61,760 nt of DNA from a virus, in IMG/VR virus record IMGVR_UViG_3300009610_000010, positions 1 to 61,760 of that record, one strand, 5' to 3'. Positions 1 through 61,760 of this stretch are shown in pieces. Each line of letters starts with the position of its first letter. Positions within the stretch are counted from its first letter, which is position 1. Position numbers and translations under genes: made by a program. The notes under the pieces were generated by a model that saw nothing but the letters and a program-made list of their open reading frames with translations, searched no databases and was not told where the DNA came from.

Positions 1-123
1 CGCAGCCAGGGACGCAGCCAGGGACGCAGCCGGGGCCGCAGCCGGGGTCGCAGCCGTGGACGCAGCCTGGGACGCAGCCGGGGACGCAGCCGTGGCTGCC
101 ACCGCTGGCAGCCCCGGGGCCCG
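1..123. repeat. Direct terminal overlap: 1..123 is identical to 61638..61760, so the contig closes into a circle of 61,637 bp
   Basis: Base-by-base comparison of both ends. The overlap extends past the 12-nt tandem repeats into sequence unique in this orientation. Confidence 0.9.
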
Positions 124-343
124 GCGCCTGTTGGGCAGCCTGACCGAGGCCGCCGGGGCCGCAGCCGGGGCCGCAGCCAGGGACGCAGCGCTGATGGCGC
201 GGCTCATGGTCGTAGCCGATTTGCCGGTTGATCCGAAGCACTTCATCCACGCCGCCGCGCGCTGGCAGGTCTGGCAGAAGGGATGGGGCTTGGTTTGTGA
301 CGTGAATGGAGTCTTATATGTCTACGCGCCGGAGGAGAAGTAA
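2..343 (+). CDS. 3' part of the DAA-tetrapeptide-repeat protein that starts at 61075 and wraps the circular junction (stop 341..343)
   Basis: Frame of track ORF 56..343 is continuous with the open frame from ATG 61075 once the 61,637 offset is applied. TAATG overlap with the next gene. Confidence 0.7.
   Translation, partial: AARDAARDAAGAAAGVAAVDAAWDAAGDAAVAATAGSPGARRLLGSLTEAAGAAAGAAARDAALMARLMVVADLPVDPKHFIHAAARWQVWQKGWGLVCDVNGVLYVYAPEEK
91..156 (+). repeat. 66-bp perfect inverted repeat, copy A (partner 37802..37867)
   Basis: The reverse complement of 91..156 equals 37802..37867 exactly. It encodes VAATAGSPGARRLLGSLTEAAG here. Confidence 0.95.
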
Positions 344-22349: not shown

Positions 22350-22505
22350 TCACCGTCCTCTTGGCCCGCGGCTTTTCACGGGCTGCGCGGGCTGCCGATA
22401 CAGTGGAAACCGATCATCGTTGCTGCCAGCGCACAGCGCTGCCGCCACTATGCCGGCGAAAAAGCCCAGGAACAGGCCGATCAACAACGCCACCCATGGA
22501 GTCAT
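22350..22505 (-). CDS. Small single-pass membrane protein (51 aa)
   Basis: ATGA overlap with the fibre-gene stop. MTPWVALLIGLFLGFFAGIVAAAL. Confidence 0.45.
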   Translation of the reverse strand: MTPWVALLIGLFLGFFAGIVAAALCAGSNDDRFPLYRQPAQPVKSRGPRGR

Positions 22506-25500
22506 AGGGGCACCCCCTCGAAAGTGTCCACCACTGCGCCACTGCCACCGCCACCGGTGGGCGTGCAGGGCGGGTCGCACGCTTCGACGTGGCTGCGCAT
22601 GCGTCCACCGTTGAGCGTGGCGGGCAGGCGCGTTTGCAGGTTGTCCAGGTCGGCCTGGGCCACCGCCATAGCCGCGAGGATGTCGTCGATTAGGTTCTGG
22701 TTGGCCCCCGCCGAGCCAGCAACCAGGTGCCCGGCCAGCCCCTCGTCCCACACTGCAGCAGCAATCACCGCGGCCGATGCCCCACTGCCGGCGTTGTTCA
22801 GGGCCTCACCGGTCGAGCCCACCGCGAGGTGCCCGGCGAGCGGCTCGTTCCACGTTTGGTCTACGATCTCATCCACGGCATCAGTAGCGATCGCATCGGC
22901 GTCAATCGCCCCCGTGGCAATCACTGCCGCGGTGATCGTTCCAGCGTCCATCGCTTCCACGTGCGAGCGCATGCGCCCGCCCACGAGAGACGCCGGTAGC
23001 CTGGTCTGAATGTTGTCCGTGTCGGCCTGGACCCCGGCGATTGCCGTTTCGAGCGTGCCCGTGCCAGTAGTCGGAGCGACCGATCCGGTGACGCCGAGCG
23101 CCTGCCGAATCTGATCCCGCTCGCCTGCCGTCCAATCGGTTGCCCCCGAAGCTGCGGCCGTTCCGATTGCCGTCCGGAGAATCGAGTAATCATTCGTCGA
23201 GATCGCCTGCGTGAAGGCGGGATCGACCGTGAGCGTATCGGTCCCGGGATTGAAGTCCGTGATCCGCCGGATCTGACCCGAAGTCGAGCCAGAGCGGATG
23301 TAGAGGAGCGATCCCTCCCAATAGTCGGCGTCCGCCTGCGTGAGAGCGGCATCGACGAGTGTGGTAGTCGAGCCTGAATCGGCGGTTCCGGTGAAGGCCG
23401 AAATGATTTCGACCGCCGCGTCTTCGGCGAGCGCGTCGGCATCGATGGCGCCGGTGGCAATCGATGCCGACGTGATCCCGCCGGCTGCGACCGAGCCGAC
23501 CGACCCGTTGACGTTGCCGTTGACATTGCCGCCGACGTTGCCGGTCACGCTCCCGACCGAACCGCTGAGGCTCCCCTGAATGTCGGCGTTTAGGTCGAAC
23601 CCGGCACCGGCACCGACCAGCTCCATGCCGTCGCCAGCCGTCGGAGCGATCGCATGGATGCCATCGCCACTGGTTGCCCCGCCGACCGCATCGAGCCCGT
23701 GGCCGGTGGCGCCGGCTTCGAGCCGCATCCCGGCGCCAACGCCGTCGCCGAACCCGTAGATGCCGTGTCCGCTGACGCCCGACTGCCCCACGATGCCCGA
23801 GTTGCCAGCCGTGCCCCCGCCGATCGCCTGGAAGCCGTGCCCGTTGGCGTTGGCCTGGACCCGGAAGCCGTCGCCGGACGTGGCGCCCGCGAAGCCGTGG
23901 AACCCGTGCCCCGTGGGCCCACCGTTCCCCCGCACGCCAGAGCCGGTCCCGGTGCCGACCCCGAGAAGTCCATGCCCGTTGGGAGCCCCGCCCGTGCCGA
24001 CGATGCCGGCCCCTGACGTGGTCCCGCCCGTGCCGGCGATTCCGGCCTGAGTCCCGGCACCGATCGCCGAGAAGCCGGAGGCATTCCCCCCACCAGCGTT
24101 GGCAACGATGCCGGTCCCGGAGGTCGGCCCGCCCGTCGCCACGATGCCAAAGCCCGTGTCGATGCCGACGGCCTGGAAACCATGCCCGGTTGAGCCGCCG
24201 ACCGTCCCGCCTTGGGCTCGGATGCCCGCGCCGGTCCCGGTCCCCTCGGCGTAGATACCGCGCCCGTTCCCGCCGGCCGTGACGGCCTCGACCGCGTCGC
24301 CCGTAGCCGTGCGGGCACTGATGGCCGGCCCAGCGGAGTTGTCGATGTCGATCGCCCCGGCGGCCGTGGTCGAGTTGATCCTGAGCTGCTCCAGGGTCAG
24401 CTTGTTGCCACCCGTGCCGTCGAGCATCGTCTCGAAGGCATCCGCCGCCGCGGCATCGCCGGAGACGCGGACCATATCAGCCAGCACGTATTCCCCGAAG
24501 CTGCCGGCAATAACATGGCCTGCGCGTAGCTCATCCCACACCGCGTCGGCTACCTGGCCGGCGGTTGGAGCGCTGCCGGCCGCTGATCCTACCCCCGTCC
24601 GCAAGATCAAGTAATTGTTGGTGCTGATCGCCTGGGTGAAAGCCGGGTCTACAGTGATCGTGTCGGTGCCCGGGTCGAACGCCGTGATCCGCCGGATCTG
24701 ACCGACCGTACTACCGCTCGTGATGAGGACCAAGGAGTTGACCCAGTAGTCCGTGTCGGCCTCGGTGCGGGCGGCATCGACAATCGTGGTCGTCGAGCCC
24801 GAATCTGCGGTGCCCGACACGGCAGCAATGATCTCGTCGGCCGCGTCCGAGGCCAGCGCCGAGGCCGTAATTGAGTTGGCGGCAAAGCTCGCCGCGGTGA
24901 TCCCACCGGCGGCAATCGAGCCCACCGAGCCGACCACATTGCCTCCGACATTTCCAGAGAGCGAGCCCTGAATGTCGGCGTTGATGTCGAAACCACCACC
25001 AGCGCCGACGGCCTCGATCCCGTCGCCCACGTTAGTTGCAATGGCATGGATCCCATCGCCAGACGTAACCCCGCCAGCAGCGTTGATCCCGTGGCCGGTG
25101 GTCCCGCCCTGCGCTTCGATGCCGTGGCCTACGCCATTGCCGAGCGCGCGTATGCCCGATGCGCCGCCCTGACCGAGCGCGCGCATGCCTTCGCCGCCTC
25201 CCACCGCTCCTGTGGCGAGGATCCCAACGGCCGTTCCGACGCCTCCAGCAATGGCATTGATCCCGTTGCCCGAGCTAGCGTCGGCGCGGATTCCGTCGCC
25301 CGACGTGGCGCCGGCCGAGGCCCGAATCCCGTTCCCGTCATCGCCACCTATGGCGTTGATCCCATCGCCAGTCCCGTTTCCGAACGCAATGATACCGGCG
25401 GTGCTGAGCCCGCCACCCTCGGCTTGGATGCCGTTGCCTGCGGATCCACCGATCGCGCGAAGGCCGGGGAAGTTCACGTTTCCGATGGCGGCTATCCCGC

Positions 25501-26419
25501 AGCCAGTCGTCCCTCCATCGCGTCCCTGAGCGCGAATCCCGTCGCCGTCCCCGGTGGTCGAGAACATGGCTCCATGCCCGCTCAACACGCCCCCGGTCCC
25601 GTTGAGGCCATGCCCGGTCGCTCCTGCGGCGGCATTGATACCGCTTCCGGATCCGTCGCCAACGGCACTGATGCCATGACCACCGCCCGCGGCGATGAAG
25701 CTCGCACCATTCCCCGTGGCGCCTCCAGTCCCGAGGACTCCGGCTCCGGAGCCCGCCCCGGCGGCGGCGATCCCTCGGCCGTTGGTCGCGCCGCCCGCGG
25801 CGTTGATCCCGTCGCCGTTGGTCGCGCCGCCCGTCGCGATGAGCCCGTGACCGGAGCCCTGGCCCGTGACCGCGAGCCCGCTGCCACTACCCCCGGTCGA
25901 GACGAACTCGCCCGCGACCCCGCTGGATGTGCGCGCCGAGAAGGCAGGCCCGGTTGAGTTGTCGATGTCGATGGCGCCGCCCGCGGCCGACGAGTTGACG
26001 CGCAGCTGTGCCACCGTGAGCACGTTGCCGCCCGTGCCGTCGAGCATCGTTTCGAGCGCATCGGCGGCTGGCGCGTCGCCCGAGATTTGCACCACGTTCG
26101 AGGCGACAGCCGACAAGCCAAGGCTTACGCCGTCGTGCGGATTTGAATTCGTCGTAACGAAATTGGCGCCGACCGGAATGGACCCGATAGCCGTGAAGAT
26201 ATAGCCTACGTGGTCGCCGTTGGTGTCGGCAGCACTCGGGTCGAACCTATACTGACCGAGGCCCATTTCGGTCACGGTGCCCGTGGCCGCGGCCTGCGCT
26301 CCGCCGTCGATCGAGCGATTCACGTTGGGGCTCAAGCCTGTGACGCCGGCACCCGTCGTGGTGCTGATCATCACGAAGAATACGCGCTGACCGGCGACGT
26401 TCTGGCGCAGTGTGCTCAT
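22502..26419 (-). CDS. Giant Gly-rich repeat fibre/decoration protein (1305 aa) with two duplicated ~430-500 aa modules
   Basis: Dozens of ~10-aa GGxTxGxGIxA-type units. Module 1 is roughly aa 111-608 and module 2 roughly aa 651-1083. The C-terminus has a duplicated D-N-I/L-QTRLPA..GGRMRSHVEA motif. Confidence 0.75.
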   Translation of the reverse strand: MSTLRQNVAGQRVFFVMISTTTGAGVTGLSPNVNRSIDGGAQAAATGTVTEMGLGQYRFDPSAADTNGDHVGYIFTAIGSIPVGANFVTTNSNPHDGVSLGLSAVASNVVQISGDAPAADALETMLDGTGGNVLTVAQLRVNSSAAGGAIDIDNSTGPAFSARTSSGVAGEFVSTGGSGSGLAVTGQGSGHGLIATGGATNGDGINAAGGATNGRGIAAAGAGSGAGVLGTGGATGNGASFIAAGGGHGISAVGDGSGSGINAAAGATGHGLNGTGGVLSGHGAMFSTTGDGDGIRAQGRDGGTTGCGIAAIGNVNFPGLRAIGGSAGNGIQAEGGGLSTAGIIAFGNGTGDGINAIGGDDGNGIRASAGATSGDGIRADASSGNGINAIAGGVGTAVGILATGAVGGGEGMRALGQGGASGIRALGNGVGHGIEAQGGTTGHGINAAGGVTSGDGIHAIATNVGDGIEAVGAGGGFDINADIQGSLSGNVGGNVVGSVGSIAAGGITAASFAANSITASALASDAADEIIAAVSGTADSGSTTTIVDAARTEADTDYWVNSLVLITSGSTVGQIRRITAFDPGTDTITVDPAFTQAISTNNYLILRTGVGSAAGSAPTAGQVADAVWDELRAGHVIAGSFGEYVLADMVRVSGDAAAADAFETMLDGTGGNKLTLEQLRINSTTAAGAIDIDNSAGPAISARTATGDAVEAVTAGGNGRGIYAEGTGTGAGIRAQGGTVGGSTGHGFQAVGIDTGFGIVATGGPTSGTGIVANAGGGNASGFSAIGAGTQAGIAGTGGTTSGAGIVGTGGAPNGHGLLGVGTGTGSGVRGNGGPTGHGFHGFAGATSGDGFRVQANANGHGFQAIGGGTAGNSGIVGQSGVSGHGIYGFGDGVGAGMRLEAGATGHGLDAVGGATSGDGIHAIAPTAGDGMELVGAGAGFDLNADIQGSLSGSVGSVTGNVGGNVNGNVNGSVGSVAAGGITSASIATGAIDADALAEDAAVEIISAFTGTADSGSTTTLVDAALTQADADYWEGSLLYIRSGSTSGQIRRITDFNPGTDTLTVDPAFTQAISTNDYSILRTAIGTAAASGATDWTAGERDQIRQALGVTGSVAPTTGTGTLETAIAGVQADTDNIQTRLPASLVGGRMRSHVEAMDAGTITAAVIATGAIDADAIATDAVDEIVDQTWNEPLAGHLAVGSTGEALNNAGSGASAAVIAAAVWDEGLAGHLVAGSAGANQNLIDDILAAMAVAQADLDNLQTRLPATLNGGRMRSHVEACDPPCTPTGGGGSGAVVDTFEGVPL

Positions 26420-26790
26420 TGCACGTCAAACCCCGTGCCCATGTTGACCTTGGCACCCCACGCGGGCGAAAAAGTCACAGCCGCTGCCATCGCTTCGAAT
26501 TGCTGCTTATGGCGCCAAGTGGTCGGAGCAAAATAGGCGTATTGCTGCGTCACGCTCGGCGTCGTCACGACCGAGCCGGTGAGGGCATACGTCTCATGCG
26601 CTGAGGCGTAGCGCATCCGAAACTCGTTCGCCGGTTGACCGAGCACGTCGAATCCGTCGTAGCAACCACCACCGAGAAGGGCACCCCAATATTTCCCGAT
26701 GACCCTTGCGTTGGTCGCGGTGAACGCTCCTTCTTGGTCGGCCATGAATTGCCAGCCGCGCGTCGTAGCCGCGATTCGGAAGAACGACAT
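26416..26790 (-). CDS. Hypothetical structural-module protein (124 aa)
   Basis: TAATG overlap with paralog 3; ATGA overlap with the fibre gene. Confidence 0.55.
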   Translation of the reverse strand: MSFFRIAATTRGWQFMADQEGAFTATNARVIGKYWGALLGGGCYDGFDVLGQPANEFRMRYASAHETYALTGSVVTTPSVTQQYAYFAPTTWRHKQQFEAMAAAVTFSPAWGAKVNMGTGFDVQ

Positions 26791-27269
26791 TAGAAGTCCA
26801 TCCAGTCCTCCAACCATGTGACACTAATGTCCATGATCGGAGTGATTACGGCCGCAACCTGGATCATCGCGACGCCCGCCCCCGGGCCGATCTCGATTCC
26901 ACCGGGGATCGGGTAGACCATCCCCCCTCCCTGGATGTTGTGGTAAGACACTCGCGGACCTAGATCGACTGACGAAGCCAAGAGCGTTGGTTGGACCGAA
27001 TAGGCTGACATGTCGAGAAGCGCTCCCGATACCGGTGCCACCCCGAGCATCGAGTGGTTGGAGCTATTCGGGGTCACAGTTGACCCGGGTGTCCCGCGCG
27101 CCGAGATCCTTCGCAAGCGCCACGACGTTCCCGCGGTCGGCGTTCCCTGCGCGAACATGGACCAACGCAGCAACTTGATCCTCTGGGTCGAGTGCGGATT
27201 CCACAGCGCCCACACCGCATGGTCGGCGTTGTTGCCACTAGCTGCCGTTCGCCCAGCGCACGAGTACAT
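26790..27269 (-). CDS. Tandem paralog 3 of a 159-aa family (unknown function)
   Basis: Shares ADHAVWALWNPHSTQRI..WSMFAQ...RLRRISARGT.GSTVTPNSSNHS.LGVAP...AYSVQPTLLAS...GAGVAMIQ...WLEDW with the two upstream genes. Confidence 0.7.
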   Translation of the reverse strand: MYSCAGRTAASGNNADHAVWALWNPHSTQRIKLLRWSMFAQGTPTAGTSWRLRRISARGTPGSTVTPNSSNHSMLGVAPVSGALLDMSAYSVQPTLLASSVDLGPRVSYHNIQGGGMVYPIPGGIEIGPGAGVAMIQVAAVITPIMDISVTWLEDWMDF

Positions 27270-27273
27270 TCTC

Positions 27274-27750
27274 TTACATCCAATCCTCTAGCCACGTCAC
27301 CCCAATGTCGAACACGACTGAGATGGTGGCCGGGACCTGGATCATCGCGACTCCGGCTCCAGGTCCAATCTCAAGGCCGCCTGGGATCGGGTAGATGATT
27401 CCCGAGCCTTGAACGGCTGAGAACACGAACCGCGGCCCCAAGTCAACCGACGATGCAAGCAACGTCGGTTGCACCGAGTAGGCCGCTAGATCGAGTAGCA
27501 CGCCGGATACCGGCGCGACCCCGAGCGTCGAGTGGTTCGAGCTGTTCGGCGTGACCGTAGAGCCCGCCGTGCCTCGGGCCGAGATTCGACGTAGCCGGCA
27601 AGCCCACCCGGCGGCTGGCGCCGCACTCTGAGCGAACATCGACCAGTTGATGACCTTGATCCGCTGCGTCGAGTGCGGATTCCAAAATCCCCACACGGCA
27701 TGGTCGGCGGTCCCTGCGGTCGCCGCGTTTCGTCCGGTGACGGTGTACAT
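27274..27750 (-). CDS. Tandem paralog 2 of the 159-aa family
   Basis: Same family as paralog 3. TAATG junction with paralog 1. Confidence 0.7.
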   Translation of the reverse strand: MYTVTGRNAATAGTADHAVWGFWNPHSTQRIKVINWSMFAQSAAPAAGWACRLRRISARGTAGSTVTPNSSNHSTLGVAPVSGVLLDLAAYSVQPTLLASSVDLGPRFVFSAVQGSGIIYPIPGGLEIGPGAGVAMIQVPATISVVFDIGVTWLEDWM

Positions 27751-28229
27751 TAGATCCAGTCCTCCAACCAAACCACCGTGTTGTCGTAGGCCACCGAGGC
27801 CGCGGCATTGAGCTGAATCATCGCGATCCCCGCCCCGGGAGGGATTTCGATGGCACTATCGAAGTCCAGGACCACGCCGCATCCTTGAAGCGTAGCCATA
27901 ATCCATGGCTCTCCTATGTCCACCGCGCTCGCGAGCAGCGTGGGTTGAACCGTATAGGCACCCAGGTCGAAGAGCGCGCCCGATGGCGGGGCCACTCCTA
28001 GCAGTGAGTGGTTCGAGCTATTCGGCGTCACCGTCGATCCCGCCGTGCCTCGGGCCGAGATTCGGCGCAGGCGACAGCTCCACCCACCGAGGGGGTTTCC
28101 GCCTTGCGCGAACATCGACCACTGGATGAGGCGAATCCGCTGGGTCGAGTGCGGATTCCACAGCGCCCACACCGCATGGTCGGCGGTTGCTGCGGTCGCT
28201 GTGCTTCTTCCTGATGCCGAGTAGGACAT
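27750..28229 (-). CDS. Tandem paralog 1 of the 159-aa family
   Basis: Same family as paralogs 2 and 3. TAATG junction with the upstream small gene. Confidence 0.7.
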   Translation of the reverse strand: MSYSASGRSTATAATADHAVWALWNPHSTQRIRLIQWSMFAQGGNPLGGWSCRLRRISARGTAGSTVTPNSSNHSLLGVAPPSGALFDLGAYTVQPTLLASAVDIGEPWIMATLQGCGVVLDFDSAIEIPPGAGIAMIQLNAAASVAYDNTVVWLEDWI

Positions 28230-37140: not shown

Positions 37141-37670
37141 TTGCTGCCCGGCTCCTCGCGGGCGGTGTTGGCCGTGGCCAGGTACTCGACCTCCACGGGG
37201 TTGCCATCGGCGTCGCGCACGATGCGCACCAGGCCGCGGGCCTCCCAGTCCTGCCGCACTCGGCGGTAGCCCTCGCGCCGCAGGGGGCCCGGGTGCACGC
37301 GCTGGTGCGGGTGCACCTGCACCACCTCATCCCCGGGACTAAACCCGGTGCCCCGGTCAATCTTGCAGTCGATCACGGCGCTGACCTTGGCCCGGCGGTT
37401 GCGCGGGTAAAACGGCGGCTCGGCCATGAGCATCCAGCCGCAGCCGCGGTACTCGCCCACAAAGGGGGCCTCATCGGCCATGCACATCACGATCTTGTAC
37501 TCGCGGGGGCACGCACTGGCGTAGCCACACCGCGGGCATACCACGTCCATCAGCTGGCGGCGGCGCTCCTCGGCGGCCACCTGCTCGCGCACCCTAGGGG
37601 GGGCCCACAACTGGGCCGCTGGGCTGTAGTCGAGCCGGCGCCGCAGCCGGGGGTCAGGCCGCAGGTCCAC
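37137..37670 (-). CDS. Hypothetical protein with a zinc-ribbon motif (177 aa)
   Basis: GTG start overlapping the portal end; CPRCG...C...C. Confidence 0.5.
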   Translation of the reverse strand: MDLRPDPRLRRRLDYSPAAQLWAPPRVREQVAAEERRRQLMDVVCPRCGYASACPREYKIVMCMADEAPFVGEYRGCGWMLMAEPPFYPRNRRAKVSAVIDCKIDRGTGFSPGDEVVQVHPHQRVHPGPLRREGYRRVRQDWEARGLVRIVRDADGNPVEVEYLATANTAREEPGSN

Positions 37671-39552
37671 CGTTGGCTCCTACCGGTGGGGCCAGGCGGC
37701 GCCGATCGCTGCGCATGCGCTCGCTGATGGTGCCCACCCCGGCGCGCAGCTGCCCCAGCTGGTCGGCCGTGGTGCTGCGCTCGCGCGTGGCAGCGGCCCG
37801 GCCGGCGGCCTCGGTCAGGCTGCCCAACAGGCGCCGGGCCCCGGGGCTGCCAGCGGTGGCAGCCACGCCCACGCCCTGCTCGCTGCCATCGTCACCACCG
37901 GCCATGAGCACGGCGGCCTTGAGGTCCACCAGCTTGGTGGGCATGCTGGCCCACGGGTCGGGGTCGGGCGGGAAATCCTGGTTCTTGACGATGCGGCTGG
38001 CCGCTGCCCGTATGTCGTTGATGCTCAGGGCGCCGGTGCTGGCCAGCACGCTCACGATCTGCGCGTCGCGCAGCTCGTCCACGGTGTCGTACTCGTTGTA
38101 CTGGAACCGCACCATGGGCAGCAGGCGCAGGTCGAGGATGATGTTCCAAAAGGCTTCGAGCATTTCCTGCCGCGGCTCGATCTGGCTGCGCTTGTACGTC
38201 TCGTCCTGGGTTTCGCCGCTGCCCGTGCCCAGACTCGCCGTCTCGATGATGCCCAGCTTGCTGGGCAGCATGCGATAGACGTGGATGATGTTGTCGCGGT
38301 TGGTTTGCTGGTAGTCCGCCCACTCCTGGTCCTTGGGCTCACCGCCCAGCTTTTCGAAGACGATTTCCACCTGCTCGATCGGCACCTTCAGCGTCATGGT
38401 GCGCTGGTCGTCGCCCTCGATCATGTACCGCATGTGGTCCTCGATGGTGTGCTGGATGCCATCGAGGATGCTCTTGCTGTCGGGGTTGGCAAAGGCCGCC
38501 GTGGGGGCCTTGATGAACACCACGTAATCGGGCACCCCGCGGTTGATGAAGAACCGGATGTTGCGGTTCGAGGCCAGGATGTTGCCCACCAGGCTGTTGA
38601 GCGCGGCCACGATGGGCGGGATGCCGTAGTAGCGCTCGGCCGGGTGGTAGTGCTTGAAGTCCACCAGCTCGCGCTTCAGGTCGCCAAAGCGCTGGCCCTT
38701 TTGCAGCTGCGCCCCGTGGGGCAGCCCGGCTGCCACGGCGATGGCCTCCTCCCGGCTGATGTAGGCCCACGGCGTGTCGGTGTCGATGCGCCCCTGGGCC
38801 AGGGCCGAGGGATCGAGCGGGGCGACCTCGGCCCCGAAACGGCGGAAGAAGGCCGCGGGGCGCCCCAGCTCGTCCAACTGGGCAAACGTGGTGCCGTCGA
38901 AGCCCCGGCGCACCAGCCGTGCCAGCACGTGTATGAGCTGCGTGGGCAGGTCCGCGTCGTCGCGCACGATCTCGATGTGCGCCTGCCCCGTGCTGTCGTA
39001 GTCCTTGATCAGCAGCTGGCTGAACGTGCTCACGGGGATGTGCTGGTCGTCAAAGTCACGGGTCATGCTGTCGAGCAGGCGCTCGGCCTCGGCGCGCTGG
39101 GCGTCGGCGGCGGTGTCCTCCAGGGCGGTGGGGGCAATGTCGGTGCCCTCGGGGGCGCCCTCCTCGGTGTCCACCAGGCGCCACCCACTGGCCGCATCGA
39201 GGGCGAACTGATCGACCACGGCGAAGTAGGTGTGCGACTCGAACAGCAGCCCAGCCAGGGTGTCGAGGTCAAACGGGGGCTCGGCGTACAGCCCCATGAT
39301 GGCGGCGACTTCGCCGGGCGGCTCGGGCCGGCTCACGCGGCCGGGTGCGGGGTCGCCATCGGCCTTGGCCTGCTGCTGGCCGCGGTGGCGGTCGCGTACG
39401 GTGCCGGGGGTGCGCAGCCCGAGCAGGGGATAGTTGGTGGGCAACTCGTGGTAGCGCTCGGCGGTGGTGCTCTCGCGGATGACCACGCTGTGGGCCTCGG
39501 GCGGCTGCAGGGCGGGCGGGGCGGGCAGGGGCGGGGCGCCGCGGGTGATCAT
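37654..39552 (-). CDS. Portal protein
   Basis: ~630 aa. YYGIPPIVAALNSLVGNILASNRNIRFFINRGVPDYVVFI core motif. Start ATG 39552 after GGGGGAAA. Confidence 0.8.
   Translation of the reverse strand: MITRGAPPLPAPPALQPPEAHSVVIRESTTAERYHELPTNYPLLGLRTPGTVRDRHRGQQQAKADGDPAPGRVSRPEPPGEVAAIMGLYAEPPFDLDTLAGLLFESHTYFAVVDQFALDAASGWRLVDTEEGAPEGTDIAPTALEDTAADAQRAEAERLLDSMTRDFDDQHIPVSTFSQLLIKDYDSTGQAHIEIVRDDADLPTQLIHVLARLVRRGFDGTTFAQLDELGRPAAFFRRFGAEVAPLDPSALAQGRIDTDTPWAYISREEAIAVAAGLPHGAQLQKGQRFGDLKRELVDFKHYHPAERYYGIPPIVAALNSLVGNILASNRNIRFFINRGVPDYVVFIKAPTAAFANPDSKSILDGIQHTIEDHMRYMIEGDDQRTMTLKVPIEQVEIVFEKLGGEPKDQEWADYQQTNRDNIIHVYRMLPSKLGIIETASLGTGSGETQDETYKRSQIEPRQEMLEAFWNIILDLRLLPMVRFQYNEYDTVDELRDAQIVSVLASTGALSINDIRAAASRIVKNQDFPPDPDPWASMPTKLVDLKAAVLMAGGDDGSEQGVGVAATAGSPGARRLLGSLTEAAGRAAATRERSTTADQLGQLRAGVGTISERMRSDRRRLAPPVGANGGPAA
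37802..37867 (-). repeat. 66-bp perfect inverted repeat, copy B (partner 91..156), inside the portal C-terminal region
   Basis: Exact reverse complement of 91..156. Encodes the same 22 aa in the portal frame. Confidence 0.95.
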
Positions 39553-41337: not shown

Positions 41338-42306
41338 CTACTCGCCCCGGCCAAAGTCGGCCTGCTTGGCCACGGCAGCACCACGCTGCCGCTCCTCAGC
41401 CGGCGTACCGCACTCGGCCATCTTCGTGCGGTAGTAGAGCACCAGCGTCATGCGCTCGAAGCGCTTGTGGAGGCCATCGTATGGGCTGGTACCGTGCCAC
41501 TCGTGCGGGTCGAAGAACAGGGCGTCACCCGTGTTGAGTTCGATGGCCAGGCGGTACTTGGGTAGCACCAGGTGGCCACCGGTGAACTGCCCGGATCGGA
41601 TCATCACCAGGTTCGAGAACCCCGGCTTGTAGTCACCGTCGTCCTGATGGGTGCCGCACTGAAAGTTACGATTCACGGTGATGGTGGAGAAGCACGTGCC
41701 GCCCACCAGCCACTGCGGGCAGGTCCGGTTGGCGATCTCCCGCTGTGCTGCCCAGCGATCAGGCACGGCATAGGCCATCAGCTGCTCGACTTCCCTTGCC
41801 AGGGGCACGACCGACTTTAAGCACTCCTGATTAACACCATTTGCCGAGGCGGCACGGCAGTATGGCCGGCGATCATCGCGGTCAAGGCAGCCAACCACAT
41901 CAGATGAGCCAAGGCGAAGATGGCGTGAAACGTGATTTGGGATTCTATTTGTTTTGCTGCGCACGACGGTGCCGTTGCGGTTAACTGCCGGGTAGCCCTT
42001 TAGTGTTCGCCCATTGCCATCACGCCCAGCCGCGCTACCACGGTTTAGTGGTGCATGGGATAGGCCACGCAGCCCACTCCAGGCCATGCCCAACGCACCG
42101 GCTGAGAGCGCGCCGCGCAGCACCACGAACAGCGTGCTGCCGTCGATCCGCAGCCCCCGGATCGAATCGCCATCCATGCCCAACACCTCGTCGTACCAAC
42201 TGGGCTCGGGCCGGAAGCCGCGCAGCGCTTTGGCTTCCTTTTCATCCAAGGCGGCGGTCACGCCCATTTCACGCACCCGCCCGGGGGCAAAGCTGGGGGC
42301 CAGCAT
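41338..42306 (-). CDS. TET/JBP-family 2OG-Fe(II) dioxygenase
   Basis: HxD in CGTHQDDGD; LVLPKY; EWHGTSP followed 10 aa later by RMTLVLYYR. This parallels the ELHATTP...RISLVFYQH arrangement of TET enzymes as I remember it. Confidence 0.7.
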   Translation of the reverse strand: MLAPSFAPGRVREMGVTAALDEKEAKALRGFRPEPSWYDEVLGMDGDSIRGLRIDGSTLFVVLRGALSAGALGMAWSGLRGLSHAPLNRGSAAGRDGNGRTLKGYPAVNRNGTVVRSKTNRIPNHVSRHLRLGSSDVVGCLDRDDRRPYCRAASANGVNQECLKSVVPLAREVEQLMAYAVPDRWAAQREIANRTCPQWLVGGTCFSTITVNRNFQCGTHQDDGDYKPGFSNLVMIRSGQFTGGHLVLPKYRLAIELNTGDALFFDPHEWHGTSPYDGLHKRFERMTLVLYYRTKMAECGTPAEERQRGAAVAKQADFGRGE

Positions 42307-42308
42307 TG

Positions 42309-43097
42309 CTATGGGCTCCGTGGATCGTCTGGCATGCCATCGGCCGCGAAGCCCAGCGCGGCCAGCACAATGTCAGTGGGGTTTTCGAGGCCAGCAGCGT
42401 TACCAACCTGTCGCATCAGCCCTTTGAACTCGGCCAGCTGGTTGTCATCCATGATCAAACGCACGCTGCGCACGTTGCTGTCCACCGGGGGCTCAAAGTC
42501 CCCCGCCCCCTGCTCCACTCCGTAGTCGCGCGCCGCCCCGGGAACAAACTCCAGCACCTTGCCAGGGTAGAAGATGTCCTCGAAGCGCAGCGCTGCAAAC
42601 AGCGTCTCGGGCATGCTGTCGCGCGCTGCCATCAGAAGCTCGGTCGTGCGCTCGTTGAACGTGCCCATCAGGGCGTCGTTGTTCAGGGTCAGGTTCAGGG
42701 CCTTTTCCCGGCCCTCGTCCATGTCCACCACCGTCACCACGCACAGCTCGGTGCCGGCGGCCTGCATGGCCTTGAGCCGCTGGTGGCCACCCACCACCCG
42801 CTGGGTGCGGCGGTTCCATACGATCGGCTCCACCAGGCCAAACTCCTGCAGGCTGCGGCGCAGCCCGGCCAGGGCCTCGGGCGTGATGGTGCGCGGGTTG
42901 TACTCGCTGGGGCGCAGGTCGGCCACCCGGCGCACTTCGAGCCGCATGCCCGCGAGGTCCACCGCGCTGGGGCCCTGGGGCTCGGTCAGTACTTGGGCGG
43001 CGACTTCTTCGGGCCCTTGGGCTTGGGGGGCTTCTTGGGGGCTGGCTTTTTCTTGGGCGTGGCCATGGATCGGTCCTCCTCCTGTAATGGGGCTCAT
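42309..43097 (-). CDS. ParB/Srx-like N-terminal domain protein
   Basis: LRPSEYNPR...GLVEPIVWN...VVGGHQRLKA motifs. ATGA overlap start. Confidence 0.6.
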   Translation of the reverse strand: MSPITGGGPIHGHAQEKASPQEAPQAQGPEEVAAQVLTEPQGPSAVDLAGMRLEVRRVADLRPSEYNPRTITPEALAGLRRSLQEFGLVEPIVWNRRTQRVVGGHQRLKAMQAAGTELCVVTVVDMDEGREKALNLTLNNDALMGTFNERTTELLMAARDSMPETLFAALRFEDIFYPGKVLEFVPGAARDYGVEQGAGDFEPPVDSNVRSVRLIMDDNQLAEFKGLMRQVGNAAGLENPTDIVLAALGFAADGMPDDPRSP

Positions 43098-43345
43098 GGG
43101 CGCAGCTCCTGCACGGTTTGCTCGGCCCAAAACTCGCCATGTGCGCACCGCACACACGGCGTGCCCAGCGGCTGCCCGTGCTCGCACTTGAGCGGCAGCG
43201 TGGGGGGCACGGTCAGCGAGCCGCCGTCGGCATCGGCCACGGCAGCCGAGTTGTAGCTGGCCACAAACCGCTCGTGCAGCAGTTGCAGCACACGTGCCCG
43301 GGCGGAAGGCGGCAGTGGCTGCAACAGCTTCAGCATGCGATTCAT
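43094..43345 (-). CDS. Hypothetical protein (83 aa)
   Basis: ATG 43345; C..H...C..C pattern near the C-terminus. Confidence 0.4.
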   Translation of the reverse strand: MNRMLKLLQPLPPSARARVLQLLHERFVASYNSAAVADADGGSLTVPPTLPLKCEHGQPLGTPCVRCAHGEFWAEQTVQELRP

Positions 43346-45994: not shown

Positions 45995-47515
45995 CTAGCG
46001 GCTGGTGGCTTCGAGGTACATCAGGGCGCCCAGGCCCTTCAGCCGGCAGTCGGCCAGCCACAGGGCCATCAGGCGGTCGCCGGTGTGGTCCCGCAGGTTG
46101 TAGCGCCGGGCCTCGGCGATCAGCTCCTCCACCTCGCGGCGCTGCTGGGGCAGGCGCCAGCGCAGGGCATCGAAGTCGGCGCCCATCCCCCGGATGGCCC
46201 AGTGCTCCTCGCCGCGCTTGGCCGAGGCCGTGGTGTACTGCCCAAAAACGCGGATGGTCGCCGCTTCCTGCTTGGTCGCCCCCAGGGCCCCCAGCAGCTC
46301 GGCGTCCTGCGCGAGGTGGGCGATGTGCAGCTGGGCGGCGTTGGTTTCGACCAGCCACTCGTTAGGGCGCATCTGGCGCTGCACGGCCAGGATCTCCTGC
46401 AGCAGGGCCTTGCCCACCCACATGCCACTGCGCAAGTGCAGCAGGTGTTTGTGGGTGGCCGTCTCGCCCACCACGGCGATGGCGGTGAGGTTGCTGCCGG
46501 CGCGCTCGCTGGCGCCCAGGTCTACCCCGGCGGTGATCCATCGAAAGGCGCCATCGTGGTACTGGCCGCCCCACCACTCGGGCGGGTCGGTGCACAGCTC
46601 CTGGCACCGGCGGATCGACTCGTAGGGCAGCAGGTTGGTGGCTTCGCCGATGGGCACATTCAGCATCTGCCGGGCGTACTCCTGGTCGCCCAGCTCGTTG
46701 CGGCGGGCCGCGAGGCGGGCATCGGGCCACACCTCGGGCCACTGGCAGTTGTGGTCACCGGCGTTGTACGTCTCGACGTGCCACACGTCGGGGTTTTCCT
46801 TGGCCAGCACGTGGTAGGCATCCAGCTCGTGCCACGTGTTGTTGATGGCCAGGATGCGCCCCTGCTCGGTCAAGCGGCCGATGAGGGTGCGTTTGATCCA
46901 GTCGTAAATCTTCTCCCGCCCGGCCCGGGTGAACGCGTTGCGCTCGGTGATCACGTCGTCGAGGATGGCCAGGTCGATGCGCGATCCCATGATGCTGCCA
47001 CCCACACCCATGGCCTCGATCGAGTAGTCCTTTTCGCGCAGGCTGGTCATGCGGTCGCGCTCGACCGTGATGGCGTTGTTCAGCCACGACACCAACATGC
47101 CGCCGTTGCGGGTGGCCGGGCGCAGGTTGGGCCACACCTGGCGCACGGCGGGGTTGAACTGGATGTTGTCCTTGATTCGGGCGAGCCACTTGCGGGCCTG
47201 GGTGGCCGTTTCGCTGATGATGGCGATACGCAGGTTGGGGTCGCGGCCCAGCTCGCCCATGGGGCGCATGAGAAGCAGCTGCGACGACTTGCCGAACTCC
47301 GGGGGGGCATAAAGAATCAGCCGCGGATGGGTGTCCGCGGCTAGCTGCCATGCCAGGTGAAACGCTTTGGGATTAAGGCGCAGCGCGTGCTGGCCCAGGA
47401 AGGCCGGGCTGGCGCGTGCGAGCGCGATCGAAGATTGCTCTAATACCGGCGATCCCTTCGCCGACCGCCAGCTGCTCCTCCGGCGTGAGCCGTTCGACAA
47501 GCGCGGCGAGTTCAT
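45995..47515 (-). CDS. terL: Terminase large subunit
   Basis: Walker A LYAPPEFGKSS, Walker B-like IDLAILDDV, and a C-terminal nuclease-type region. Follows TerS. Start is ambiguous (ATG 47515 or 47548), and either overlaps TerS by more than 140 nt. Confidence 0.8.
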   Translation of the reverse strand: MNSPRLSNGSRRRSSWRSAKGSPVLEQSSIALARASPAFLGQHALRLNPKAFHLAWQLAADTHPRLILYAPPEFGKSSQLLLMRPMGELGRDPNLRIAIISETATQARKWLARIKDNIQFNPAVRQVWPNLRPATRNGGMLVSWLNNAITVERDRMTSLREKDYSIEAMGVGGSIMGSRIDLAILDDVITERNAFTRAGREKIYDWIKRTLIGRLTEQGRILAINNTWHELDAYHVLAKENPDVWHVETYNAGDHNCQWPEVWPDARLAARRNELGDQEYARQMLNVPIGEATNLLPYESIRRCQELCTDPPEWWGGQYHDGAFRWITAGVDLGASERAGSNLTAIAVVGETATHKHLLHLRSGMWVGKALLQEILAVQRQMRPNEWLVETNAAQLHIAHLAQDAELLGALGATKQEAATIRVFGQYTTASAKRGEEHWAIRGMGADFDALRWRLPQQRREVEELIAEARRYNLRDHTGDRLMALWLADCRLKGLGALMYLEATSR

Positions 47516-48116
47516 CGTCGAGCCCGCCGCTTCCGCGGGACTTGCCATTGCCGCCGGAAACTACCACACCCGGGCCCAGGTCACCGTGCTGGGCACCCCA
47601 GCGGGCCATGTCGGCGGTGAAGCCCCCCCGCGCGGCCAGGATGCCCCGCAGGCACAGGTCGGCCTGGCGGGCAGCAGCGAGCTGAAAGTGCGCCCGGCGG
47701 CGGCGGGCCACGCGGCGGCGCAGGTGCAGGGCGGGGTCGGCCTGGCACTGGGCGTCGCTCAGGTCGCAGTCCTCCTTCTCGTAGTTGGCAGCTGCGGCCA
47801 TGACCATGCTGTATTGCACGAGGTAGCGCTCGGCCACGCCGGTGCGCACCGCGGCGTAGTCGGTGCGCTGGCTTTCGCGGGTGTTCCAGGCGCGTTCGTC
47901 GCGGGCGGCCGTCTCGTGGCTGACTCCCAGTTCCTCGGCGATGGCGCGGATGGGCACGCCCTGAGCGCGCAGCTGGATGACCCGCGCGCGACGTTCCCAC
48001 AGCGAGTTACCGTTGTCGGCTCGGCGGGAAGGTGGGTGCTGCATCTTCTTGGCGGTACCGGGCTGTGATGCAGGCGGATCGGGGCTTGATGCTTGATTAG
48101 ACGTGGCCTTATCCAT
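47373..48116 (-). CDS. terS: Terminase small subunit (HTH)
   Basis: IQLRAQGVPIRAIAEELGVSHETAARD HTH. Immediately upstream of TerL. ATG 48116 (alternative TTG 48128). Confidence 0.65.
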   Translation of the reverse strand: MDKATSNQASSPDPPASQPGTAKKMQHPPSRRADNGNSLWERRARVIQLRAQGVPIRAIAEELGVSHETAARDERAWNTRESQRTDYAAVRTGVAERYLVQYSMVMAAAANYEKEDCDLSDAQCQADPALHLRRRVARRRRAHFQLAAARQADLCLRGILAARGGFTADMARWGAQHGDLGPGVVVSGGNGKSRGSGGLDDELAALVERLTPEEQLAVGEGIAGIRAIFDRARTRQPGLPGPARAAP

Positions 48117-48143
48117 GGCGTACGTCAACGTAGCATGTAGGTA

Positions 48144-48401: not shown

Positions 48402-48995
48402 TCAGGCGGGCACCAGCTCGGGCTCGGGCTGGGGTTGGTTGCCGGTCGGTGGAAACAGGCAAGTGACCACTTCTCCACACTGGCTTGGGTCGAGCGGTGT
48501 GATGGCCATGGTGATGACCTCGGGGGTGGGGGCGATGGTGGAGGGTAGCTGCACATCGAGCTGGGCGCCGGCGATGGCCCGATCGAACAGCGCCAGGATG
48601 TCGGCATGGGTGGTGCGGGCCATGTCGTTGTAGCTGACGATCGTGGTGTCGATGTCGTCAGTGTGGATGCCTGCGAGGCCAGGCAGCGCCTCGCGCAAGT
48701 GCTGAGCTGCCGCCTCGTAGTCCTGAGCTGCCGCCTCGTAGTCCTGTTCCCAGAATAAAAGGGGTGCTTTGCCCCACATCGGGCGCCATGGTTTCGCGTT
48801 CTCCCGATGTGAATTGTAATCACCTTGGCAGGTCACACGGATCAGGGCACCCACGGCGCACAGCTGGTTGGCCGTGGGGTCGAAGAAGTCCACCCGCCGG
48901 CCGGCTGCGTTGCGGGCAAGGGCTCCCTTGGTCCAGCCGCGCTCGATCAGGGCGCGGGCCTGCGTGAGAATGGCGACTATCGTGGTCGGTGTCAT
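48402..48995 (-). CDS. Hypothetical early protein (197 aa) carrying an in-frame repeat insertion
   Basis: ATGA overlap start. Contains the 45-bp repeat element and a 21-nt tandem duplication (DYEAAAQ x2). Confidence 0.55.
   Translation of the reverse strand: MTPTTIVAILTQARALIERGWTKGALARNAAGRRVDFFDPTANQLCAVGALIRVTCQGDYNSHRENAKPWRPMWGKAPLLFWEQDYEAAAQDYEAAAQHLREALPGLAGIHTDDIDTTIVSYNDMARTTHADILALFDRAIAGAQLDVQLPSTIAPTPEVITMAITPLDPSQCGEVVTCLFPPTGNQPQPEPELVPA
48702..48743 (-). repeat. 21-nt perfect tandem duplication (2 copies) inside a CDS
   Basis: ctgagctgccgcctcgtagtc x2 on the + strand. Encodes DYEAAAQ-DYEAAAQ. Confidence 0.9.
48743..48787 (-). repeat. 45-bp inverted repeat, copy 1 (partner 52147..52191, 1 mismatch)
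   Basis: The reverse complement matches ggcgcccgRtgtggggcaaagcaccccttttattctgggaacagg. Confidence 0.9.
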
Positions 48996-52013: not shown

Positions 52014-52035
52014 CGTTGCTTGCTCCTGTTGCCGG

Positions 52036-56547: not shown

Positions 56548-56655
56548 TGGCCGTGCCTGGCAGCCGCCCATGGGTGGCAGCCAACGAGAGGCCCGCCACC
56601 GATGGCATCACTCGGCTGCCGGGCATCCCCCCAGCCCCGAAAGGCGCGCACCCCC

Positions 56656-57888
56656 ATGAACACCATTCAAGGCCTATTGGCGAGCCAGGCGAGCGTGGAG
56701 ACTCTGAGTGGTGCGCCGGCCGTGGTGGCAGAGCGCAGCGATCGCATCGACCAGGTGGTGGCGGCGCTGGCGCGGGCGCAGGCCAGGTTTCATGCCGTGA
56801 AGCGCAACGCCGCCAACCCGTTTTACAACTCGCGCTATGCCGACCTCGCCGCGGTGATGGACGTGGTGCGCGGCCCCATTGCCGATGAAGGGCTGGCGCT
56901 GTGGCAAACCTTTGAGCATGACCCCGCGCGGCCCGACTGGATCACCACGGTGACCACGCTGGCCCACGGGCCCAGCGGGCAGTGGATTTCGAACCGCATC
57001 CCGATGCGCGCGCTGCCCAAGCGGCGCAAGCGCCGCCCGGGTGACGAGGGCGGCGAGGAGGAGTTGATCATGCCGGGCGGGGCCCTGTCGGCGCAGGACC
57101 TGGCGTCGGGTGCGCAGTACGGGCGGCGCTACGGTGCGATGGCACTACTGGGCATCGTGGCCGAGGGCGAAGACGATGACGGCAACCGGGCGAGCGGCAA
57201 GCGCACCCAGGAGAGCAAGTGGGACACCTACCTGGCGGCGCGGCCCGACGTGGCCGAGGCCCTGCGGGTGGATCATCCGACTATCGCCGACATTGCCCAG
57301 CGGGCGCCGCGCTTTGGCAAATTGACCGACGCGCAGGAGGGCCTGGTGCTTCAGCTGGCGCGCGAGCACGGCGGGCAGCGGGGCGCCGTGGTTGCGGGGG
57401 TGGCTCGTGGCCCAGCCCCGGCTGGTGCCGGCCGGGGCAGTGATGGACCACTGGGGCCCGAGCCGCCCGTATCGGCCGAAGCGTTCATGCCCGACGCATG
57501 GCAGCTCGACCCGACGCAGGAGGCCGCCCTGGTGCGCCTGCTGGACGAGTGCCAAATACGGCACCACCGGCTCACGCCGGACGCCGCGCGCCATGTGGTG
57601 CTGCCGCCCAAGCTGGCGCGCGATGCCGGTGTGCCCAGCACCTTTGCCATGGCGAGCCTGAACCGCGAGGGGTGCCGCCGGCTGTACGATGCGCTGATGC
57701 AACTGCGCGCCACCAAGCAGCAAGGGCCGGGGACCGCGGGCGGTGGGCAACCACTGCCGGCGGCGGCGAAAACCTCCCCGGGCGATGCGGTCGTGCACCC
57801 CCACCAGGATGGTGCTGCGGCAGGTCGTTCGGGATCGTCCGCCGCAAGTGCGGTCACCGGCCCTCAGTCTAAGCCTTCCCATGGATAA
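56656..57888 (+). CDS. erf: ERF-family single-strand annealing recombinase
   Basis: VKRNAANPFYNSRYADLAAVMDVVRGPIADEGLAL is the ERF signature. Alternative start ATG 56602. Confidence 0.7.
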   Translation: MNTIQGLLASQASVETLSGAPAVVAERSDRIDQVVAALARAQARFHAVKRNAANPFYNSRYADLAAVMDVVRGPIADEGLALWQTFEHDPARPDWITTVTTLAHGPSGQWISNRIPMRALPKRRKRRPGDEGGEEELIMPGGALSAQDLASGAQYGRRYGAMALLGIVAEGEDDDGNRASGKRTQESKWDTYLAARPDVAEALRVDHPTIADIAQRAPRFGKLTDAQEGLVLQLAREHGGQRGAVVAGVARGPAPAGAGRGSDGPLGPEPPVSAEAFMPDAWQLDPTQEAALVRLLDECQIRHHRLTPDAARHVVLPPKLARDAGVPSTFAMASLNREGCRRLYDALMQLRATKQQGPGTAGGGQPLPAAAKTSPGDAVVHPHQDGAAAGRSGSSAASAVTGPQSKPSHG

Positions 57889-60608: not shown

Positions 60609-61075
60609 ACGCCACGGGCTTCCGGGTGGCGGTGGCTGGTGGCCGAGCCTACCAGGTGACCGCGCAGGACGAGCACGCGCTCGACACGGTGCGGGCGCTG
60701 CTCAACGCCGCTGGCGGGTGGGCCGTGTTGTTGCACGGCGGGGCCACGGGAGCCGACACGGGTGCCGCCACCTGGGCCGCGGCGCGAGGTATCCCCTGTG
60801 TGTCGTTTCACGTCGAGGACGCCCTGTGGCGTGCCGCGGGCCCGGCGGCTGGGCCCATACGCAACCGCATGATGCTGCGCAACGCCGACATGCTGGTGAC
60901 CTTTCCTGGGGGCGGTGGCACGGCCAGCGCGGTGAAGGAGGCCAGGCGGCGCCGGCTGTTCATCGTGCACCTGCCCATGGAACTTAGCTGCACCAAGCTG
61001 GAGGACACCGCGCTGGAGGAGCTGGCGCCTGACGAGATCGCCGCAGCCGAGGCCGCGCAGAAGGGGGAGGAGTAA
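60605..61075 (+). CDS. SLOG/DUF2493-like protein
   Basis: VLLHGGATGADTGAATWAAARGIP motif. ATGA overlap start. Confidence 0.55.
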   Translation: MNATGFRVAVAGGRAYQVTAQDEHALDTVRALLNAAGGWAVLLHGGATGADTGAATWAAARGIPCVSFHVEDALWRAAGPAAGPIRNRMMLRNADMLVTFPGGGGTASAVKEARRRRLFIVHLPMELSCTKLEDTALEELAPDEIAAAEAAQKGEE

Positions 61076-61760
61076 TGGCCGCGCCGCTCTACAAGGTGCT
61101 TAAAGACGGCAAGTCGTGCAACGGCGGCACCATGCAATGGTCGTTGCCAGAGAACGGCACGCCCGGCGAGTGGCTACGCGTCGAGGGCGACTTGAAGATG
61201 TGCGAGCGTGGGATTCATCTCACGCGCGAGCCGTTCCGCTGGTGGGTATGGGGCGCTGATCTCTACGAGGCCGATGCGCCCGCGATCGTTGAAACGCGCG
61301 ATGACAAGGTGCTAGTGCGGGAGGCGCGGTTGCTGCGGCTACTGCCCAAGCCCGATTGGCTTTTGCGCACCGAGCGATTCGTGAGCGATGAGATTCCCTC
61401 AGTACCGTGGCTCAAGCCGGACGGCAATCCGCTTCCCGAATGGCGTATGCATCGGGGCAAAACTTGGGACGCAGCCGGGGACGCAGCCAGGGACGCAGCC
61501 AGGGACGCAGCCGGGGACGCAGCCAGGGACGCAGCCAGGGACGCAGCCGGGGACGCAGCCAGGGACGCAGCCGGGGTCGCAGCCGTGGACGCAGCCGGGG
61601 TCGCAGCCGGGGCCGCAGCCGGGGCCGCAGCCAGGGACGCAGCCAGGGACGCAGCCAGGGACGCAGCCGGGGCCGCAGCCGGGGTCGCAGCCGTGGACGC
61701 AGCCTGGGACGCAGCCGGGGACGCAGCCGTGGCTGCCACCGCTGGCAGCCCCGGGGCCCG
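61075..61760 (+). CDS. 5' part of the DAA-tetrapeptide-repeat protein (about 301 aa in total after wrapping to 343)
   Basis: TAATG start. Globular N-terminal domain, then ~25 in-frame x-D-A-A units. The frame stays open to the contig end. Confidence 0.7.
   Translation, partial: MAAPLYKVLKDGKSCNGGTMQWSLPENGTPGEWLRVEGDLKMCERGIHLTREPFRWWVWGADLYEADAPAIVETRDDKVLVREARLLRLLPKPDWLLRTERFVSDEIPSVPWLKPDGNPLPEWRMHRGKTWDAAGDAARDAARDAAGDAARDAARDAAGDAARDAAGVAAVDAAGVAAGAAAGAAARDAARDAARDAAGAAAGVAAVDAAWDAAGDAAVAATAGSPGA
61455..61730 (+). repeat. 12-nt tandem repeat array (gacgcagccRgg-type units; continues at 1..90 through the overlap)
   Basis: Visible periodicity. Encodes [W/G/R/V]DAA repeats. Confidence 0.9.
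61638..61760. repeat. Terminal overlap copy (identical to 1..123)
   Basis: See the 1..123 feature. Confidence 0.9.

Follow-up and report, generated by a model that had tools for sequence, protein, structure and literature searches.

The window analysed here, a 61,760-nucleotide stretch of phage DNA (IMG/VR record IMGVR_UViG_3300009610_000010, positions 1 to 61,760), contains a perfect 66-bp inverted repeat, one copy of which lies in the 3' tail of the portal gene and the other inside the tandem array of a gene for a repeat protein of the DUF7666 type. We think it probable, at about three chances in four, that the repeat arose by a single recent copy-and-paste event within the phage genome, in which a segment of the portal tail was copied into the array under the guidance of microhomology or homeology, the donor being left intact and the new allele being tolerated. 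The event looks like a repair or recombination accident, and no dedicated function of the repeat is required to explain it. The two copies and the genes that carry them are as follows.

Positions 91..156, plus strand: recipient copy, a 66-bp tract matching the portal tail, in frame inside the DUF7666 repeat-protein gene.
Position 91, positions 92-154 and positions 155-156: make-up of the recipient copy, being respectively the last base of a GDAA unit, a foreign block of 63 nt (21 codons) and the first 2 bases of a GAAA unit.
Positions 37802..37867, minus strand: donor tract in the 3' tail of the portal gene, with the codons for VAATAGSPGARRLLGSLTEAAG.
Positions 37654..39552, minus strand: portal gene (632-aa form P0139; PF04860).
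Positions 61075..61760, plus strand: 5' part of the recipient gene, with the DUF7666-type N-terminal domain and the start of the tetrapeptide array; the gene resumes at 124.
Positions 1..343, plus strand: 3' part of the recipient gene, with array units to 91, the block at 92-154, units at 155-187, the conserved C-terminal domain and the stop codon at 341-343.
Positions 61465..61760 and on to 91, plus strand: tandem array of 12-nt units (xDAA/xAAA), 22 of them upstream of the block.

Positions 91-156 (+) are the exact reverse complement of positions 37802-37867 (66/66), and at both ends of the tract the very next base differs. No inverted match in the genome is longer; apart from it there is one exact match of at least 30 nt, in a pair at 48.7/52.1 kb, and no other reaches 40 nt. 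For a 61.6-kb genome of 67% GC, the estimated chance expectation of an exact match of 66 nt is about 1e-27. The portal and recipient genes are on opposite strands, which is what makes the copies an inverted repeat at the DNA level; both encode VAATAGSPGARRLLGSLTEAAG in frame, one in the portal and the other in a 301-aa repeat protein. The preliminary description of this DNA had reported a perfect 66-bp inverted repeat and the same 22-residue peptide in the portal and an unrelated repeat protein, and on both points it was accurate. The genome carries two copies of the tract, with no difference between them. Five of the six reading frames of the tract are open, so that the avoidance of stop codons accounts neither for the sense orientation of the copy nor for its shared phase.

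The ends of the contig are identical (positions 1-123 and 61638-61760), which indicates that it is circular or terminally redundant, with a unit of 61,637 bp. The end junction falls within the tandem array, and the recipient gene is therefore split over the two ends, running from an ATG at 61075 to a stop at 343 (61075..61760 + 124..343) and encoding 301 residues. A third, partial copy of the tract at 61728-61760 was discarded, as it is the same recipient locus seen again owing to the redundant ends. The foreign block had been placed just after the repeat array; it in fact lies within it, since a further two and three-quarter units follow the block (155-187). The recipient protein thus consists of a DUF7666-type N-terminal domain, an xDAA/xAAA array encoded by 12-nt units and a conserved C-terminal domain. 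Its own match to DUF7666 (PF24703) scores 18.7 bits, under the 27-bit cutoff, and 67 of 116 aligned homologs match the family at E<=0.001. The best viral fold matches of its AlphaFold2 model are DUF7666 proteins (prob 1.00). The model has a mean pLDDT (predicted local distance difference test score) of 80.9, with confident N- and C-terminal domains and the array folded as long helices; the block appears in it as a 4-residue break at AGSP followed by a helix that continues into the remaining units and the C-terminal domain. The new allele is therefore predicted from the model to add a helix break (AGSP) and about 4 extra helical turns to a helical spacer of variable length. Searches of the PDB by fold and by sequence and a PADLOC search returned nothing for the recipient protein, and a literature search on DUF7666 found no papers. 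Its family has more than 1000 homologs, which are phage proteins with a DUF7666 N-terminal domain, a helical xDAA array that varies greatly in length and, at the C terminus, a conserved domain with the motif …RWxVWQKGYGLLCDVxGVLYVY.

The donor is a portal gene, as had been proposed: its product matches the PF04860 profile with 74.6 bits (cutoff 39.1; E=1e-20), and PHROG portal families are matched as well. Among GenBank phages the best portal identity is about 25%, so there is no close relative there. In the 632-aa form the peptide occupies residues 563-584, which lie past the Pfam domain, and is followed in the tail by a conserved basic C-terminal motif. In the predicted structure the tract lies in a tail with pLDDT <50, and its second half is predicted to be helical. 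Across the eight closest relatives no part of the portal tail is less conserved than the peptide region (35% identity, versus 60% overall), which has a semi-conserved G-x-RRML-x-x-L motif.

The identity of two copies says nothing by itself about the direction of transfer, and for this we turned to the relatives of both proteins. At the homologous position, a portal homolog of 79% identity has the peptide in diverged form, GARRMLAALTEAAG (…GYGSAGARRMLAALTEAAG…), and homologs of 53-58% identity have …GPRRMLQALGQMAG…; diverged versions in diverged portals mean that the peptide belongs natively to the portal tail. The portal gene of the nearest distinct phage has 79.7% nucleotide identity, and its tract matches at only 45 of 66 positions, whereas the copy inside the genome studied here matches at 66 of 66. 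The tract thus drifts fast in the portal lineage, and the donor was the resident portal gene. Among portal loci from other samples, 8 show no variation in the donor tract or in the 30 nt on either side of it; one of these is from SRR6262646, in which the assembled recipient allele (L003) is free of the insert. On the recipient side, no foreign block was found in the array in about 120 family members from protein databases or in some 22 further members from IMG/VR. It had been asked which of the two families normally carries the peptide, and the answer is the portal family, the roughly 140 DUF7666 repeat proteins being without it. Nor is the peptide a common low-complexity motif, since, of 5.8 billion protein clusters, just 8 have a 5-residue word in common with it; a 44-aa query made of the doubled peptide returned 8 word-sharing candidates, none at E<=10. 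Taken together, these comparisons show that the transfer ran from the portal to the array. Recent gene conversion or module transfer, one of the explanations first offered, is thereby supported, now with a direction and a junction anatomy.

Presence of the block was assessed in more than 12 genotyped contigs, which covered the DNA around the recipient gene and conserved neighbours. Four independent assemblies contain the block, and their left and right junctions are the same: these are the window, L001 (JGI 3300011405), L025 (JGI 3300027533) and L029 (JGI 3300044497). In L001 the recipient gene is interior to a contig of 61,592 nt, and in the 61,704-nt genome from JGI 3300027533 both copies lie on opposite strands 37,645 nt apart, the same as in the window. 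The block is missing in 8 of 12 assemblies of the same phage (ERZ27267649, ERZ27267659, 3300034114, 3300044789, 3300044257, 3300011398, SRR6262646 and SRR10965824). These presence and absence calls are robust, since either state is joined to unique flanking sequence no more than about 110 nt away. Exact scans of collections of viral, metagenome and genome contigs with a 31-nt core of the tract gave no match, evidently because those collections are without this phage, and they thus yielded neither a host nor further alleles.

The window ends inside the tandem array, where many sibling contigs break as well, and an assembly chimera had accordingly been raised as an explanation. The same two junctions, however, recur in assemblies from different samples, once in the interior of a contig. 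Moreover, the junctions and the portal context share just 5 nt, much less than the k-mer length of any assembler, so that a de Bruijn graph would need reads containing the junctions in order to build them. These observations rule out a chimera.

Every long insert-free allele ends …GTGGACGCAGCC (VDAA) GGGGCCGCAGCC GGGGCCGCAGCC AGGGACGCA, that is, VDAA GAAA GAAA RDA. The block sits exactly in the slot of the terminal VDAA unit: it starts GTGG and ends GCC GCC, and GG follows. A model in which the block replaced this unit divides the 66 bp without remainder into CGTGG (91-95), 56 copied nt (96-151) and GCCGG (152-156), the first and last elements being 5-nt microhomologies common to the array and the portal. 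The 56 nt between the microhomologies are equivalent to the 63-nt, 21-codon block, and the net gain is 51 nt or 17 codons. At an alternative site, that of L003 (WDAA GDAA | GAAA GAAA), the block would be a pure 63-nt insertion with overlaps of 1 and 2 nt. From the sequences of the alleles we favour replacement over insertion at an L003-type site, because under insertion the match of the block's first four bases to the resident unit would be a mere coincidence, and because L003 comes from a small-k assembly in which the array is possibly collapsed.

The flanks of the copies had been called unrelated, which is not wholly so: the right flank of the donor is identical to the 3' end of the array at 31 of 39 positions (79%), a score reached by none of 1500 random genome windows. 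Overall, the similarity of the portal tail to the array is in the top 0.2% or so of 8162 genome windows. The portal tail is array-like because both regions are rich in Ala and Gly and use the same GCN/GGN codons, and this common codon structure accounts for a copy in the sense orientation and in phase. The resemblance would also explain why the portal tail served as donor. The left junction is adjoined by a local hairpin, GGCTGCCA-CCGC-TGGCAGCC, with a perfect stem of 8 bp.

Positions 94..113, plus strand: hairpin at the left edge of the copied tract; its donor equivalent is at 37845-37864, and it is missing in the homologous tract of the nearest relative.

Such hairpins number 15 genome-wide, versus about 9 in shuffled sequences. 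Folded as DNA, the tract is of ordinary overall stability (z = -0.07), and the local hairpin alone stands out. Its position is suggestive of polymerase stalling at the left junction, although it was noticed post hoc.

The insert-bearing and insert-free genomes are otherwise nearly identical. Outside the array, the flanks show 0-2 single-nucleotide polymorphisms (SNPs) in 20.5 kb, both of them private to the window; insert-bearing L001 and insert-free L002 differ at no position of the 20.5-kb flanks, and the first 1.3 kb downstream of the array has no variable position in any of the 12 assemblies. The event is thus very recent and of single origin, as the population is near-clonal; flanking SNPs are too few to ask whether the genomes with the insert form a clade. 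The four alleles that bear the insert have the same junctions and neighbouring units (WDAA GDAA | block | GAAA GAAA RDA) and differ in the number of upstream units (8 versus 22). Our reading of these alleles is that there was one event, which would be very recent on the clock of point mutation, and that ordinary expansion and contraction of the array followed. Across assemblies (L001, L002, L013, L026, L027 and the window) the array has about 5 to 26 units of 9 types, counts that may be collapsed as they come from short-read assemblies, above all small-k Logan ones. On this evidence the array is effectively almost the sole variable site in the population and appears to be a hypermutable variable-number tandem repeat (VNTR). 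One array unit, the fourth of L001 (10428-10439), is the aberrant CGGGCCGCCGCC (RAAA with a CGG codon), three positions off the other types; it was seen in this one assembly and has no 20-mer in common with the rest of the genome. No further portal-derived patches were found among the odd units of the array. Variation of another kind occurs elsewhere: in L027 and L031 a gene module is replaced from about 1.3 kb downstream of the array, and L003 and L029 have an extra small gene (100-aa), which is cassette-type mosaicism inside a near-clonal population.

How the block came to be in the array we infer as follows. That the array is effectively the sole fast-evolving site points to frequent slippage, stalling or breakage there. 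A stalled fork or a break in the array may have been repaired from an ectopic, homeologous template, the portal tail. Possibly, the nascent strand switched template to the portal tail; alternatively, a single-strand-annealing protein of the Erf type could have paired an array strand with it. Either route would place the 56-nt tract in the terminal VDAA slot and retain the donor. Since the donor is 37.6 kb away and on the opposite strand, the event was probably intermolecular and took place in a replicating pool. The new allele would then have been tolerated in the variable helical spacer and now segregates with insert-free alleles in the clonal population. A candidate catalyst is encoded by the phage itself.

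Positions 56602..57888, plus strand: Erf-family single-strand-annealing recombinase (PF04404, E=7e-14).

The genome had been credited with both Erf and RuvC; Erf is there, and no RuvC was found among the open reading frames scanned. Erf-type recombinases efficiently recombine substrates that are short and about 78% identical (De Paepe et al. 2014, PMC3945230).

Several observations weigh against this account. The presumed ancestor, …WDAA GDAA VDAA GAAA GAAA RDA, was not seen as such, and the insert-free alleles that were seen have GAAA, not GDAA, ahead of the VDAA unit. The empty site of L003 (WDAA GDAA|GAAA GAAA), for its part, leaves an overlap of 1+2 nt only. Two genome windows are more array-like than the portal tail, so that homeology alone singles out no donor. 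Neutrality of the insert is assumed, and the allele could be selected; that it occurs in 4 samples from several projects and with differing numbers of upstream units suggests that it is at least not strongly deleterious. Finally, allele frequencies and minor recombinant forms are beyond the reach of assemblies, and unit counts are unreliable.

Selection on the peptide itself is the best surviving alternative, if an improbable one. In that case the segment would be a functional motif for docking or processing, recognised for example by the terminase, a MuF-like head protein, the scaffold or a protease, with the allele under selection, and the DUF7666 protein would be a mimic of the portal tail or a hitch-hiker. 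The semi-conserved motif in the eight closest portal relatives is consistent with this, as are the predicted helicity of the second half of the peptide in both contexts and the occurrence of the allele in 4 assemblies with 8 or 22 upstream units, which means that it outlasted later changes of the array. The peptide, however, is missing in 8 of 12 near-clonal assemblies and in about 140 other family members, and it falls in the least conserved region of the portal tail. In addition, perfect nucleotide identity speaks of recency rather than constraint, and the junctions lie, on the replacement model, at microhomologies and not at domain boundaries. A shared docking or processing peptide, as suggested in the preliminary description, is thus unsupported, the recipient family and most assemblies being without it, and there is no sign that the recipient depends on the peptide. 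It also seems conceivable, if slightly less probable still, that the array is a capture site for in-frame snippets and that the captured helix binds a partner of the portal tail, the allele being kept as a balanced polymorphism. If so, capture would have given the DUF7666 protein a new regulatory or packaging interaction, with the terminase, a MuF-like head protein or the scaffold.

We consider it very unlikely that the repeat is a recombination device, in which the in-phase inverted repeat would invert 37.6 kb and swap the tails at the C termini of the portal and repeat proteins. Such an exchange would keep the reading frame, the phage encodes Erf, and 66 bp of perfect homology is long enough for recombination of the RecA or Erf type. 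Against such a device, all 11 copies of the 66-mer in the fetched loci have parental flank pairs, and the second complete genome (61,704 nt) keeps the parental arrangement and spacing. Assemblies display the majority form only, and rare isomers would escape them. The four chimeric proteins predicted from inversion are missing from a collection of about 15 billion proteins, a negative of low power as the 301-aa recipient product of the window, whose gene is split over the contig ends, is missing too. Most genomes in the population are without one arm of the repeat, and inversion would strip the portal of its conserved basic C-terminal motif. Pfam annotations, which extend over roughly 45 kb, revealed no site-specific invertase and no recombinase catalytic domain, and the sole hint is a sub-threshold match to a resolvase-type helix-turn-helix (HTH) on one protein (HTH_7, 22.7 bits versus a cutoff of 23.8). 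That protein, of 251 residues (47373-48128, minus strand), has a homeodomain-like or resolvase-type HTH (HTH_23, 30.3 bits) and no detectable catalytic domain, and may be the small subunit of the terminase or a regulator. The idea that the repeat is a substrate for recombination therefore stands as a latent consequence of its presence and fails as regards inversion isomers, the junctions of which were looked for in the assembled loci and not found. The inverted repeat is a latent liability, not a device.

The remaining explanations fare worst: an origin of the tract in the repeat protein or another phage, with copying into the portal gene or into both genes, is scarcely credible given the diverged tract at the homologous position in all close portal relatives, the invariant portal tract in genomes without an array copy and the closer match of the array copy to the resident portal than to that of the nearest relative, and an artefact of assembly or library construction, the block being joined into the array at contig ends, is no more credible in view of the recurring junctions. 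Four other kinds of element were considered and rejected. A diversity-generating retroelement (DGR) does not fit, as there are no adenine-specific differences between the copies and no reverse transcriptase in the annotated regions. A transposon does not fit either: there are no copies beyond the two in the genome and no target duplication beyond a 3-nt GCC ambiguity. Regulation by antisense RNA was dropped because both mRNAs carry the same strand of the tract and hence are not complementary, and a CRISPR-like reading was dropped as well.

Some other features of the genome were recorded in passing. The inverted repeat second to the one studied here is 45 nt long and 98% identical (48743-48787 / 52157-52201) and encloses a 3.4-kb segment; close to it lies a direct repeat of 57 nt, 84% identical (52035-52091 / 52979-53035). 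This region is relatively AT-rich and has a small hairpin, and its repeats may be terminators, operators or cassette boundaries. On the minus strand at 41338-43187, a gene for a Tet/JBP dioxygenase adjoins one for a ParB_N-domain protein, and a relative carries a TAGT-like gene; a cluster of methyltransferase and glycosyltransferase genes is found at about 5-10 kb (L001 15153-20313). Together, these genes suggest a module for DNA hypermodification. Three tandem paralogous open reading frames of about 159 aa each (26790-28229, minus strand; period 476-481 nt, about 70% nucleotide identity) adjoin a repeat-rich open reading frame of 1305 aa (22502-26419), and this is probably a tail-fibre or receptor-binding region.

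Among known processes, the closest in outline is microhomology-mediated templated insertion, as in fork stalling and template switching or microhomology-mediated break-induced replication (FoSTeS-MMBIR) or in templated insertion at repaired breaks; a short patch of ectopic gene conversion would look much alike. The case described here shares with templated insertion a copy-and-paste transfer that retains the donor, a short tract (56-63 nt), junctions that on the replacement model fall at 5-nt microhomologies, a tandem-repeat recipient that is difficult to replicate and a hairpin at one edge of the tract. It differs in that it concerns a phage genome and not a eukaryotic chromosome, with no enzyme of the Pol-theta type implied; in that the donor lies on the other strand at a distance of 37.6 kb, the event being probably intermolecular; and in that it has yielded a coding chimera, in frame, which segregates in nature, with an enzymology that is presumed. 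Relaxed, homeologous recombination by phage Rad52-like recombinases offers a second parallel. A study of the Redβ, RecT, Erf and Sak proteins notes frequent exchanges of about 100 bp within genes (De Paepe et al. 2014, PMC3945230), and here too the genome encodes Erf and the right flank of the donor is 79% identical to the array over 39 nt. The exchanges described in that study, however, involve related genes of different phages or prophages; here the genes are unrelated and belong to one genome, the insertion is non-reciprocal, and the left junction has microhomology only.

Other likenesses are more superficial. The repeat resembles the invertible segments governed by Mu Gin (the G segment) and P1 Cin, and the shufflons, in that inverted repeats lie within coding sequence and an in-frame swap of C termini is possible. 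Unlike them, it comes with no invertase gene that could be seen; 11 copies and 2 complete genomes yielded no isomers, most of the population has just one arm, and an exchange would not only scramble 37.6 kb but also truncate a conserved motif of the portal. It is like the template-repeat and variable-repeat pairs of DGRs in that a phage genome has two copies of a short tract, one of them in the C-terminal half of a variable protein; here, in contrast, the copies are identical, the scanned regions have no reverse transcriptase, and the donor belongs to the ordinary coding sequence of an essential gene. Finally, the 12-nt in-frame units of the array vary among genomes that are about 99.99% identical, as do those of coding VNTRs or contingency repeats, but the change at issue is the capture of a foreign block by the array and not a change in unit number.

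The event is thus of an ordinary kind and unusually well documented, and it is no new biological system. Old and eroded mosaics are the usual basis for inferring how phage genes gain internal segments, and there is still debate over the relative weight of illegitimate and homology-guided recombination. In the present case a single near-clonal wild population retains the donor together with both the filled and the unfilled site, and the junctions are resolved to the base. The result is a clean natural example of the transfer, guided by microhomology or homeology, of a 21-residue segment in frame between unrelated genes. It presents a coding tandem repeat as a fragile site that recruits ectopic templates, and it leaves the genome with a latent 66-bp inverted repeat that could drive rearrangement. 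The locus can serve as a case study of such events and as a substrate for testing Erf-type recombinases.

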